Below are positions 17,618-23,053 of a stretch of 23,053 nucleotides of DNA, piece after piece (positions within the stretch are counted from its first letter, which is position 1; every line of letters begins with the position of its first letter). The stretch comes from a virus. Lineage: Duplodnaviria; Heunggongvirae; Uroviricota; Caudoviricetes. The position numbers were made by a program. The stretch lies in the IMG/VR virus record IMGVR_UViG_2537562020_000011, positions 1-23,053 of that record. The stretch is one strand, 5' to 3'.

Positions 17618-20600
17618 TGAAAACGCCCACCATTCCCACCCTTCTGGGACCGGACGGCATGACATCGCTGCGTGAATATGCCGGTTATCACGGCGGTGGC
17701 AGCGGATTTGGTGGGCAGTTGCGGGCGTGGAACCCACCGGGTGAAAGTGTGGATGCAGCCCTGCTGCCCAACTTTACCCGTGGCAATGCCCGCGCAGACG
17801 ATCTGGTACGCAATAACGGCTATGCCGCCAACGCCATCCAGCTGCATCAGGATCATATCGTCGGGTCTTTTTTCCGGCTCAGTCATCGCCCAAGCTGGCG
17901 CTATCTGGGCATCGGGGAGGAAGAAGCCCGTGCCTTTTCCCGCGAGGTTGAAGCGGCATGGAAAGAATTTGCCGAGGATGACTGCTGCTGCATTGACGTT
18001 GAGCGAAAACGCACGTTTACCATGATGATTCGGGAAGGTGTGGCCATGCACGCCTTTAACGGTGAACTGTTCGTTCAGGCCACCTGGGATACCAGTTCGT
18101 CGCGGCTTTTCCGGACACAGTTCCGGATGGTAAGCCCGAAGCGCATCAGCAACCCGAACAATACCGGCGACAGCCGGAACTGCCGTGCCGGTGTGCAGAT
18201 TAATGACAGCGGTGCGGCGCTGGGATATTACGTCAGCGAGGACGGCTATCCTGGCTGGATGCCGCAGAAATGGACATGGATACCCCGTGAGTTACCCGGC
18301 GGGCGCGCCTCGTTCATTCACGTTTTTGAACCCGTGGAGGACGGGCAGACCCGCGGTGCAAATGTGTTTTACAGCGTGATGGAGCAGATGAAGATGCTCG
18401 ACACGCTGCAGAACACGCAGCTGCAGAGCGCCATTGTGAAGGCGATGTATGCCGCCACCATTGAGAGTGAGCTGGATACGCAGTCAGCGATGGATTTTAT
18501 TCTGGGCGCGAACAGTAAGGAGCAGCGGGACAGGCTGACCGGCTGGATTGGTGAAATTGCCGCGTATTACGCCGCAGCGCCGGTCCGGCTGGGAGGCGCA
18601 AAAGTACCGCACCTGATGCCGGGTGACTCACTGAACCTGCAGACGGCTCAGGATACGGATAACGGCTACTCCGTGTTTGAGCAGTCACTGCTGCGGTATA
18701 TCGCTGCCGGGCTGGGTGTCTCGTATGAGCAGCTTTCCCGGAATTACGCCCAGATGAGCTACTCCACGGCACGGGCCAGCGCGAACGAGTCGTGGGCGCA
18801 CTTTATGGGGCGGCGAAAATTCGTCGCATCCCGTCAGGCGAGCCAGATGTTTCTGTGCTGGCTGGAAGAGGCCATCGCTCGCCGCGTGGTGACGTTACCT
18901 TCAAAAGCGCGTTTCAGCTTTCAGGAAGCCCGCAGCGCCTGGGGGAACTGTGACTGGATAGGCTCCGGTCGTATGGCCATCGATGGTCTGAAAGAAGTAC
19001 AGGAAGCGGTGATGCTGATAGAAGCCGGACATGGGAACGTCAGCCACCATGACATCCGGTGAGCAGTCCGGTGCTGTGATACGTGGTGTTTTTGATGACC
19101 CTGAAAATATCAGCTATGCCGGACAGGGCGTGCGCGTTGAAGGCTCCAGCCCGTCCCTGTTTGTCCGGACTGATGATGTGCGGCAGCTGCGGCGCGGCGA
19201 CACGCTGACCATCGGTGAGGAAAACTTCTGGATAGACCGGATTTCGCCGGATGATGGCGGAAGCTGTCATCTCTGGCTTGGGCGGGGCGTACCGCCTGCC
19301 GTTAACCGTCGCCGCTGAAAGGGGGATGTATGGCCATAAAAGGTCTTGAGCAGGCCGTTGAAAACCTCAGCCGTATCAGCAGAACGGCGGTGCCCGGTGC
19401 CGCCGCAATGGCCATTTCCGTCGGACAGTATAAAGCCGCCATGCGTATGCTGCCTGCACAGTTCACTGACGTGGCCACGCAGCTTGCAGGCGGGCAAAGT
19501 CCGTGGCTGATCCTGCTGCAACAGGGTGGTCAGGTGAAGGACTCCTTCGGCGGGATGATCCCCATGTTCAGGGGGCTTGCCGGTGCGATCACCCTGCCGA
19601 TGGTGGGGGCCACCTCGCTGGCGGTGGCGACCGGTGCGCTGGCGTATGCCTGGTATCAGGGCAACTCAACCCTGTCCGATTTCAACAAAACGCTGGTCCT
19701 TTCCGGCAATCAGGCGGGACTGACGGCAGATCGTATGCTGGTCCTGTCCAGAGCCGGGCAGGCGGCAGGGCTGACGTTTAACCAGACCAGCGAGTCACTG
19801 ACGGCGCTGGTGAATGCCGGTGTGCGTGGTGGTGAGCAGTTTGAGGCGATCAGCCAGAGTGTGGCGCGTTTCTCCTCTGCATCCGGCGTGGAGGTGGACA
19901 AGGTCGCTGAAGCCTTCGGGAAGCTGACCACAGACCCGACGTCGGGACTGACAGCGATGGCACGTCAGTTCCATAACGTGACGGCGGAGCAGATTGCGTA
20001 TGTTGCTCAGTTGCAGCGTTCCGGAGATGAAGCCGGGGCATTGCAGGCGGCGAACGAGGCCGCAACGAAAGGGTTTGATGACCAGACCCTCCGCCTGAAA
20101 GAGAACATGGGCACGCTGGAGACCTGGGCAGACAGGACAGCACGGGCATTCAAATCCATGTGGGATGCGGTGCTGGATATTGGTCGCCCGGACACTGCCC
20201 AGGGAATGCTGGAGAAAGCAGAAAAGGCTTTTGATGAGGCGGACAAAAAATGGCAGTGGTATCAGAGCCGGAGCCACCGGCGCGGTAAAACCTCAGCATT
20301 TCTTGCCAATCTCCGGGGAGCATGGGAGGACAGAGCGAATGCGCAACTTGGGCTTTCAGCCGCCACGTTGCAGGCCGATCTTGAAAAGGCCAGAGAGATG
20401 GCAGCAAAGGACTGGGCCGAGTCTGAGGCATCACGGCTGAAATATACCGAAGAGGCGCAGAAGGCTTACGAACGCCTGCAGACGCCGCTGGAGAAATATA
20501 CCGCTCGTCAGGAAGAACTGAACAAGGCACTGAAAGACGGGAAAATCCTGCAGGCAGATTACAACACGCTGATGGCGGCGGCGAAAAAGGACTATGAAGC

Positions 20601-23053
20601 GACGCTGAAAAAGCCGAAGCAGTCCGCTGCGGGAGAGCGTCAGGAAGATCGAGCACATGCAGCTCTTCTTGCGTTACAAGCTGAACTAAAAATGCTTGAG
20701 CAGCATAGTGGAGCGAATGAAAAAATCAGCCAGCAGCGCCGGGATTTGTGGAAGGCGGAGAGTCAGTTCGCGGTACTGGAGGAGGCGGCGCAACGTCGCC
20801 AGCTGTCTGCACAGGAGAAATCCCTGCTGGCGCATAAAGATGAGACGCTGGAGTACAAACGCCAGCTGGCTGCACTTGGCGACAAGGTCACCTATCAGGA
20901 ACACCTGAACGCGCTGGCACAGCAGGCGGATAAATTCGCACAGCAGCAACGGGCAAAACGGGCCGCCATTGATGCGAAAAACCGGGGGCTGACTGACCGG
21001 CAGGCAGCGAGGGAAGCCACGGAACAGCGCCTGAAGGAACAGTATGGCGATAATCCTCTGGCGCTGAATAACGTCATGTCAGAGCAGAAAAAGACCTGGG
21101 CAGCTGAAGACCAGCTTCGCGGGAGCTGGATGGCAGGCCTCAGGTCAGGCTGGAGTGAGTGGAAAGAGAGCGCCACGGACAGTATGTCGCAGGTTAAAAG
21201 TGCTGCCACGCAGACCTTTGATGGTATTGCACAGAATATGGCGGCGATGCTGACCGGCAGTGAGCAGAACTGGCGCAGCTTCACCCGTTCCGTGCTGTCC
21301 ATGATGACAGAAATTCTGCTTAAGCAGGCAATGGTGGGAATTGTCGGGAGTATCGGCAGCGCCATTGGCGGTGCTGCCGGTGGTGGCGCATCAGTGTCAG
21401 GCGGTACAGCCATTCAGGCTGCTGCGGCAAAATTCCATTTTGCGACCGGGGGATTTACGGGAACTGGCGGCAAATATGAGCCAGCGGGGATTGTTCACCG
21501 TGGTGAATTTGTCTTCACGAAGGAGGAAACCAGCCGGATTGGCGTGGGAAATCTCTACCGGCTGATGCGCGGCTATGCGGAAGGTGGTTATGTGGGCGGT
21601 GCCGGAAGTCCGGCGCAGATGCGGCGGGCGGAAGGCATTAATTTTAATCAGAACAATCACGTGGTGATTCAGAACGACGGTACGAATGGTCTGCCAGGTC
21701 CACAGATGATGAAGGCAGTGTATGACATGGCCCGTAAGGGGGCCCGTGATGAAATTCAGGCACAGATGCGCGATGGTGGTCTGTTCTCCGGAGGTGGACG
21801 ATGAAGACCTTCCGCTGGAAAGCGAAACCCGGTATGGATGTGGCTTCGGCCCCTTCCGTAAGAAAGGTGCGCTTTGGTGATGGCTATTCTCAGCGAGCGC
21901 CTGCCGGGCTGAACGCTGACCTGAAAACGTACAGCGTGACGCTGTCTGTCTCCCGTGAGGAGGCCACGGCGCTGGAGTCGTTTCTGGCTGAGCACGGGGG
22001 CTGGAAAGCCTTTCTGTGGACGCCGCCTTATGAGTGGCGGCAGATAAAGGTGACCTGCGCAAAATGGTCGTCGCGGGTCAGTATGCTGCGTGTTGAGTTC
22101 AGCGCAGAGTTTGAACAGGTGGTGAACTGATGCAGGATATCCGGCAGGAAACACTGAATGAATGCCCCCGTGCGGAGCAGTCGGCCAGCGTGGTGCTCTG
22201 GGAAGGTGAAAGTGAGCCGGGTTCCTGACGGCGTTGCCGAGTACAGCGTGTGGGGGCTGAAGCTGCCGACGCTGCGCCAGCGCCTGTTCCGCTGTGTGAG
22301 TATCCGTGAGAACGACGACGGTACGTATGCCATCACTGCAGTGCAGCATGTACCGGAGAAAGAAGCCATCGTGGATAACGGGGCGCACTTTGACGGTAAC
22401 CAGAGCGGCACGGTGAATGGTGTCACGCCGCCAGCAGTGCAGCATCTGACCGCCGAAGTCACCGCAGACAGCGGGGAATACCAGGTGCTGGCCCGCTGGG
22501 ACACGCCGAAGGTGGTGAAGGGGGTGAGCTTTATGCTTCGCCGTAAGCGTAAACTGACCGCCGTATGTAGCCATCAGACGAGAATTGGTAACTTAGACGC
22601 CCATCTGATATAGACGGACATCTAAGTATGGAATTACAGGACTGGCGAAAAGAACCTCGTAAAAACTATTCGAATGAATTCAAACTTCGTATGGTGGAAC
22701 TGGCATCACAACCTGGAGCTTGTGTTGCACAGATTGCACGTGAAAATGGCGTCAATGATAATGTTATTTTCAAATGGCTCAGGCTCTGGCAGAACGAAGG
22801 GCGTGTTTCGCGGCGTCTTCCGGTAACGACCTCTTCTGACACTGGCGTTGAATTATTACCTGTAGAAATAACGCCGGATGAGCAGAAAGAACCTGTGGCG
22901 GCCATTGCGCCGTCTTTATCCACTTCCACTCAGACCAGAGTCAGTGCCAGTTCCTGCAAGGTGGAATTCCGTCACGGTAACATGACGCTGGAAAATCCAT
23001 CGCCAGAGCTGCTCACAGTGTTGATCCGTGAACTGACCGGGAGGGGAAGATGA

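Follow-up and report, generated by a model that had tools for sequence, protein, structure and literature searches.

An in-frame Z'-'H fusion in a decayed lambda-like prophage is probably a recent neutral remnant with its Z end at a recurrent breakpoint

The stretch of DNA analysed here, 23,053 nucleotides (nt) of IMG/VR record IMGVR_UViG_2537562020_000011 (hereafter the window), is a lambda-like prophage of an enterotoxigenic-type Escherichia coli lineage that has been eroded by several internal deletions. Among its remaining late genes, ORF listing and translation identify an uninterrupted open reading frame (ORF) of 824 codons with an ATG start (19330..21804, plus strand), in which the beginning of the minor tail protein gene Z runs into the tape measure gene H. 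An earlier reading of this DNA from the sequence alone (the sequence-only reading) considered it notable that such a frame is retained in a prophage that has lost most structural genes, and named chance, recent deletion or selection for a function of the H protein as possible causes. The locus therefore raises the question whether the frame is kept open by selection and how the two genes came to be joined. We assign a probability of about 0.85 to the reading that the ORF is a pseudogene remnant that is both neutral and very recent, and that its Z-side break lies on a recurrent rearrangement hotspot. The earliest deletion of the prophage would have joined Z and H at a shared ATT, by chance in frame.

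As a reference we used the intact late region of a prophage of the same type in E. coli ATCC 43896 (L003; 26.8 kb), in which W through the tail fibre genes are intact, with Z at 9259-9837 and H (855 aa) at 11824-14391. The window aligns to this region as four blocks (Table 1). Megablast searches against phage records and complete E. coli genomes likewise identified the window from 19414 as lambda-type H followed by M and L, and the preceding 85 nt together with the sequence upstream as FII and the start of Z. The translation is uninterrupted over 824 aa, and its alignment to intact Z and H gives Z residues 1-28, an isoleucine and H residues 61-855, which confirms the earlier description of an in-frame fusion joining Z codon 29 to about H codon 61. 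The ribosome-binding site and start codon were also rightly assigned to Z, as this stretch is 100% identical to the region upstream of intact Z. The term "full-length", which had been applied to the ORF, is slightly too strong, since the fusion lacks H residues 1-60. The deletion corresponds to L003 9346-12000 and begins at Z nt 88; it removed the rest of Z, U, V, G, T and nt 1-177 of H. As its length of 2,655 nt (885 codons) is a multiple of three, translation from the Z start reads on into H codons 61-855. The numbering of lambda H matches at the junction (Ile60/Ser61).

The domain content of the fusion reflects this composition. TMP_2 (PF06791; residues 24-225, E 1.4e-69) and Tape_meas_lam_C (PF09718; residues 598-672, E 5.2e-21) both score above the curated cut-off. 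Minor_tail_Z (PF06763) is matched by residues 3-36 (profile positions 1-34) with only 25.0 bits, the cut-off being 23.9 and the score of intact Z 273.7 bits, and the 190-residue domain is not complete in the fusion. The product thus resembles lambda gpH (853 aa) in that its residues 30-824 equal residues 61-855 of H from a close relative (DNA identity of the H part: 92% with lambda, 99.9% with the ATCC 43896 prophage) and in that both tape measure domains, the hydrophobic segment and the gpI-binding C-terminal residues are kept. It differs in that H residues 1-60 are replaced by 28-29 residues of Z and in that the partner genes are deleted, so that a role as a ruler in cis is not given. In two complete genomes that carry the same junction, E8 and E54, the Prokaryotic Genome Annotation Pipeline (PGAP) of RefSeq annotates the ORF not as one gene but as two pseudogenes, a 90-nt "phage tail protein, missing C-terminus" followed by a "tape measure protein, missing N-terminus". 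RefSeq treats the ORF correctly in this way. Like other remnants labelled "incomplete; partial in the middle of a contig", as these two are, the fusion has a microhomology junction and further deletions nearby; unlike the usual deletion remnants, its fragments happen to be in frame, and a gene caller therefore reports one protein (EMV45757.1). The ORF itself is of little importance; it illustrates how gene callers come to list a long "tape measure protein" after an in-frame deletion.

The junction was found in five of 5,426 complete genomes (E8, E1648, E1654, E54 and E1316), related genomes from Bangladesh in which the prophage sits between potC and potB, and also in four IMG/VR contigs (L007, L010, L011 and L013). 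Seven copies of the fusion (window, E8, E54, L007, L010, L011 and L013) were compared with Z and H of ATCC 43896. Six of the seven carry no point difference from the intact genes, and the window copy carries one in the entire ORF, a private non-synonymous exchange (C21527A, C to A on the plus strand; Ala733Glu). With 0 substitutions in six copies and 1 non-synonymous substitution in the seventh, the comparison for purifying selection has no power and dN/dS is not computable. As there is no divergence, the integrity of the ORF carries no information. Nonsense changes make up 3.7% of all possible substitutions in the ORF, and at near-zero divergence an intact frame is what neutrality predicts. 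Thus, the frame is still open because almost no mutations have accumulated since the deletion, and selection is not required. Among the three deletions in the prophage, the Z'-'H deletion alone is in frame, the chance prior for this being 1/3.

Furthermore, the integrity of the ORF is not kept in all carriers. Two of the five structural variants with the junction (E54/E1316 and L011) have lost the 3' end of the ORF, the last ~22 codons, by deletions that start at window 21738/21739 and have different right-hand partners; the E54/E1316 version of the ORF amounts to 805 aa. Disruption of the ORF in related strains, which the sequence-only reading had expected to speak against a conserved function, was therefore found in part, namely as a 3' truncation that arose by different deletions. 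Another prophage and lineage (strain NRZ99027-2 and three sister isolates) carries an independent Z'-'H deletion that does not keep the frame and leaves a Z' ORF of 51 codons. The retention of the ORF is thus not supported as notable, since the copies are undiverged, the frame arose by chance and the 3' end has already been lost in variants; of the three causes proposed, the data support chance and recent deletion and give no support to selection for H function. Bobay, Touchon and Rocha reportedly found in 2014 that domesticated genes of defective prophages are under purifying selection. The fusion is similar to such genes as a long intact ORF in a degraded prophage, and different from them in its lack of divergence, its restriction to one clone-like lineage and its truncated sister alleles; none of the marks of domestication was found.

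Selection might nevertheless maintain the truncated H if the protein hindered superinfecting lambdoid phages in assembling tails or injecting their DNA, or interacted with the ManYZ entry route. Although the ORF has outlived two later deletions in the same prophage, and TMP_2 and the C-terminal lambda tape measure domain are kept together with the hydrophobic segment that corresponds to residues 116-140 of gpH and, in the window copy, with the C-terminus that contacts gpI (PMC12617516), this explanation is very improbable: synonymous divergence is zero, the sole change is a non-conservative Ala to Glu exchange, the C-terminal 22 residues are gone in two of the five structural variants, and the junction is confined to one small lineage (five of 5,426 complete genomes), with the exact protein on one contig. 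It also counts for such a role that host entry factors and a defence nuclease make contact with tape measure proteins (bioRxiv 10.1101/2025.11.03.685801), and against it that no promoter-like site belonging to the ORF was found and that it lies behind terminator-like hairpins in the late operon. A consensus scan, on which these two statements rest, revealed no sigma-70-like site on the plus strand between 14400 and 22300 and placed the hairpins at 15432, 16958 and 17390, between a Q-like gene and the ORF. If expressed at all, the ORF would require late antitermination following induction; the fusion would lie in a silent late operon and may at most be made after the prophage is induced.

Such a product would be without the G/GT chaperones, the tube protein V, U, K, I and most of L and J. 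Of the assembly partners of a lambda-type gpH, the prophage lacks U, V, G, T, K and I and has only M intact, so that the fusion protein would be unable to build a tail. Katsura and Hendrix are said to have obtained shorter but assembled tails from in-frame internal deletions of lambda H, and a shortened tape measure that functions with the tail genes of a helper lambdoid phage, giving hybrid particles with shorter tails, might be considered. The tip-binding C-terminal part is intact in the window copy and would fit this idea, which is even more improbable than selection on the truncated H, as the N-terminal 60 residues have been exchanged for 28 of Z, the helper brings its own H, the data give no sign of expression or assembly, and the tip-binding C-terminus is deleted in E54/E1316. 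In the tail tip, C-terminal residues of gpH contact gpI (PMC12617516), and this region is within the ~22 residues that are cut off in E54/E1316 and L011.

With respect to the order of events, the Z'-'H junction coexists in L011 with all head genes in an intact state and in L013 with intact H-M-L-K-I; the Z'-'H deletion therefore came first and the other deletions followed. The same genomes also bear on the authenticity of the junction. The window is part of a draft assembly and ends at an IS66-family element at the contig end, which might raise suspicion of an assembly artefact; as five complete chromosomes and four independent IMG/VR contigs share an identical junction and differ in the deletions around it, the chance of this is negligible.

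The Z-side breakpoint of the fusion was an unexpected finding. A first clue came from the independent NRZ99027-2 deletion, which has another endpoint in H (L003 12241) and the same endpoint in Z within one nucleotide. In a third rearrangement, present in W21 and two other genomes, the same Z position is joined to an Rhs gene outside the prophage. The site lies at Z nt 87-88 (L003 9345-9346, window 19414-19416) and has the sequence GCAATGGCCAT[TA]ACCGCG, with the core dinucleotide in brackets; the intact sequence across it reads GCAATGGCCAT[TA]ACCGCGTTGC, or in short CCAT[TA]ACC. The Z-side end of the window deletion falls within 1 nt of it. A DNA survey was conducted with the Z sequence up to ...GCAATGGCCATT, the native continuation being forbidden, in IMG/VR, a metagenome collection and the GTDB representative genomes; the pattern for reciprocal junctions was run in IMG/VR, and the counts of junction types from these scans are lower bounds. 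At least eight different sequences follow ...CCATT(A), namely H at 12001, H at 12241, Rhs, inverted stf, the inverted ash region, lom, stf and gene L, and at least four precede (T)AACCGCG..., namely terminase A, Nu1, KilA-N and the inverted replication region. The same scan at three other positions in Z gave 88 loci among the matches listed, all of which were simple Z variants, and 0 junctions.

A survey not conditioned on position gave a corresponding result. When Z residues 1-40 were used in a protein search that returned short proteins only, 16 distinct tails diverged directly after Ile29 (that is, after ...AAAMAI), and 13 other divergences, several of them frameshifts, were scattered over ~12 positions. 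DNA and protein evidence together amount to at least 23 distinct junction types on the left side and at least four on the right side, from E. coli genomes, IMG/VR and metagenomes. The H endpoint of the window deletion (L003 12001) was seen in this event only. Random microhomology-mediated illegitimate deletion would be expected to leave unclustered endpoints, and those at the Z side are clustered. The sequence-only reading had thus placed the junction correctly and missed the non-random nature of its Z breakpoint. The recurrent Z breakpoint is robust and, as far as found, undescribed; a literature search retrieved no description of this hotspot. The Z'-'H fusion is probably a product of it.

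Two further observations concern Z. In L028 (11331-12395), a deletion between the early region and the Z hotspot has produced an in-frame KilA-N'-'Z fusion ORF of 354 aa, the mirror image of the window case. The exact 23-nt Z string CCGGTGCCGCCGCAATGGCCATT also occurs with unrelated flanks in an Aestuariivirga metagenome-assembled genome and two metagenome contigs (L014 659-683, L015 and L018), where ~0.02 chance matches would be expected in 596 Gb.

The sites to which the hotspot is joined were examined in their native state, as 13 of the 16 protein tails map to phage genes. In the pooled evidence, TA stands exactly at the junction in 17 of 20 partner sites (p ~8e-24, TA making up 2.9% of the dinucleotides in the region). 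The homology does not extend to 3 nt, as T at position -1 occurs in one of the 17 TA partners; enriched are G at -2 (13/17) and C at +2 (10/17), which gives a roughly palindromic partner consensus of about GGA-TA-TCC or GATATC. The three exceptions without a full TA, which have TT (the window event), TG and AA, each share one base of the core. The H partner of the window event is GGGGAT[TT]CCG, in which only the T of the core matches and from which the apparent microhomology ATT results. For one inversion, both junctions are available in the same genome (IMG 2547132281; L009 1701-1725 and L021). The partner site rebuilt from the left arm, one TA and the right arm (122 nt) occurs uninterrupted and 100% identical in the ash gene of at least 283 genomes; as the site is contiguous in its native state, the inversion was exactly reciprocal, with no base lost or gained. 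Reciprocity was assessed for this one event.

The hotspot events thus have a precise endpoint and a 2-nt match without further homology, they comprise deletions and inversions, and no mobile element remains. An insertion sequence (IS) or other element was present at none of the left or right junctions examined, and the two unmapped protein tails that were looked up lead into ordinary DNA. As no junction has an IS end, adjacent deletion mediated by an IS does not account for the events. Mostly, the hotspot exchanges with another TA dinucleotide without loss of a base, and the simplest explanation would be an enzymatic one, either a staggered cut of 2 nt or strand exchange at a core of 2 bp, with specific recognition of the Z site and loose recognition of the other partner. 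A transposase acting on a pair of pseudo-ends or a serine-type recombinase acting on quasi-sites may behave in this manner. Recombination at a 2-bp core predicts identical core dinucleotides in both partners, as found for 17 of 20 sites; the window event, with TA in Z and TT in H, is an exception and may be a one-mismatch variant of the class. The events resemble those of enzymes with a 2-bp core at secondary sites (serine invertases of the Cin/Gin/Pin kind, and DDE transposases that duplicate 2 bp of the target, as in the IS30 family) in being conservative, with TA in both partners, deletions as well as inversions and weakly palindromic partners; unlike in these systems, the TC/GA core and AAACC half-site of the prophage's own invertase are absent from the Z site and no IS occurs at the junctions.

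Several specific candidates were rejected. IS30 initially appeared attractive for its 2-bp duplications and its hot spot in lambda. However, this hot spot (LHS) is located at lambda 33,244-33,498 (33290) and not in Z, the inverted repeats of IS30 are unlike the Z site, and the element leaves no IS-free products and shows no clean excision. The Pin/Gin-type invertase of this prophage naturally uses sites of the form TTATCGAATACC-TC-GGTTTACAGGAA with a TC/GA core and an AAACC half-site, from which the Z site differs. Slippage promoted by hairpins or palindromes was dismissed because single-strand folding of the site was no better than that of shuffled sequences (z 0.1-0.4). Gyrase (4-bp stagger), FokI/StsI-type cuts, EcoP15I-type cuts and integron secondary sites were ruled out by reasoning on the register of the junctions.

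The Z-side breakpoint of the window might also be coincidental, that is, an ordinary microhomology event at ATT with random ends and unrelated to the TA hotspot. The 3-nt microhomology and the lack of TA on the H side would be in line with this, as would the other two deletions of the prophage, which are plain microhomology events (AC and GAA). However, the Z end is located no more than 1 nt from a site at which at least 23 other left-junction types have their break, with none at the control positions, and the two other exceptions at the site (TG and AA) also share one base of the TA core, which makes coincidence rather unlikely. The preferred reading, a neutral remnant that probably arose at the hotspot, also has to be weighed against a number of opposing points. 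The copies show no divergence by which selection could be measured, and the body of the ORF was spared by at least two later deletions of its neighbours (B'-'FII and L'-'J). Three of five same-strand Z' deletions identified by the DNA pattern (window-H, L123-L and L017-stf) are in frame, a share nominally above 1/3 at a tiny sample size. Finally, the window junction has no TA on the H side, its membership in the hotspot class resting on position (within 1 nt), and no responsible enzyme or cognate binding sites emerged among the candidates tested (Pin-type sites and IS30 ends).

Exchange at TA cores is not limited to Z, since such junctions also occur between other sites, and endpoints are clustered at two GATATC sites, one in gene E and one where gene L begins, each being the endpoint of two deletions that differ in their partner (Table 1). 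The deletions of E54/E1316 and L011 that truncate the fusion ORF begin at most 1 nt apart at ATGGCCCGTAAGG. The Z hotspot, which reads ATGGCCATTAACC, has the string ATGGCCNNTAA in common with this site, and in both strands of the 26.8-kb reference exactly two copies of the string occur, precisely at these two sites. As a motif it was defined post hoc from two sites and would be a lead rather than a result. At a third near-motif at the start of Z (ATGGCCATAAA), the nearby L127 deletion ends 90 nt upstream and not at the motif. In addition, the L-side end of the L'-'J deletion of the window lies 4 nt from the end of the unrelated L027 deletion (L003 14787 and 14791), a possible further cluster. 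The Rac prophage of K-12 gave no further example, as its tail module is unrelated.

It is conceivable, though on balance doubtful, that the hotspot is favoured by an activity not described so far, a conservative recombination or cleavage with a TA core, that acts on lambdoid late genes and is a major driver of prophage decay in E. coli. Such an activity would join Z, the GATATC sites of E and L, and ATGGCCCGTAA in H to TAs in GC-rich, roughly palindromic contexts and yield clean deletions and inversions, the Z'-'H fusion of the window being one of them. If prophages of E. coli indeed decay in part by site-preferring, conservative TA-core events and not by random illegitimate recombination, the survival of prophage genes would be partly mechanistic rather than selective, many inferences of domestication would need a TA-core null model, and an enzyme, or a pseudo-site of a known one, would remain to be found behind the hotspot.

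Table 1. Positions of the fusion ORF components, of clustered breakpoints and of neighbouring features in the window and in the ATCC 43896 reference (L003).
Feature	Window	L003	Strand	Remarks
W-B' block		3986-5534		alignment
'FII-Z' block	19029-19416	8958-9345		100% identity
'H-M-L' block	19414-22204	12001-14791		2 mismatches
'J block		18418-18758		alignment
Shine-Dalgarno AGGGGGA (19320-19326) and spacer of Z	19320..19329		+	directly after the 'FII stop codon (19316-19318)
Z' fragment, minor tail protein Z codons 1-29	19330..19416		+	alignment to L003
Deletion junction ATT	19414..19416		+	3-nt microhomology; one ATT codon shared, number 29 in Z and 60 in H
'H fragment, tape measure protein codons 61-855 and stop	19417..21804		+	alignment to L003
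Intact gene M (minor tail protein, PF05939)	21801..22130		+	overlaps the stop codon of the fusion ORF
Gene E GATATC site, GACGA[TA]TCGAA		7966		endpoint of L004 and L126/L128 deletions
Gene L start GATATC site, CAGGA[TA]TCCGG		14725		endpoint of L123 and L125 deletions
Second clustered breakpoint ATGGCCCGTAAGG	21727..21739	14314-14326	+	starts of E54/E1316 and L011 deletions
Portal B'-'FII junction	19029..19030		+	microhomology AC; out of frame
L'-'J junction	22202..22204		+	microhomology GAA; out of frame
IS66-family element (tnpA/tnpB start)	22542-23053			interrupts the 'J fragment at the source contig end
Prophage tRNA genes	16695-16770 and 16868-16944			3' of the methyltransferase gene

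The exact fusion protein corresponds to GenBank EMV45757.1 of E. coli BCE019_MS-13, the strain from which the window derives (contig AQCZ01000030.1), and was found on this one contig only among ~15 billion proteins. The prophage retains W, parts of B and FII, M, lom and the tail-fibre genes as well as fragments of L and J, and it is missing the lysis genes, terminase, C, D, E, FI, U, V, G, T, K and I; in the PGAP annotation the region appears as a run of partial pseudogenes. The B'-'FII deletion took the 3' end of the portal gene, C, D, E, FI and the 5' end of FII, and the L'-'J deletion took most of L, K, I and the 5' half of J. The homology of the window to E8 and ATCC 43896 ends at 22542.

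The early region of the window (1-12670) is mosaic relative to E8 (L001), with patches of 92-98% identity only, and from 12671 onwards the identity is 99.87%. This switch indicates that the late remnant has been recombined onto different early regions. Of the two tRNA genes of the prophage, the first is called Met (CAT) by ARAGORN and Ile by PGAP and is likely a lysidine-type tRNA-Ile2, and the second is a tRNA-Arg (TCT).

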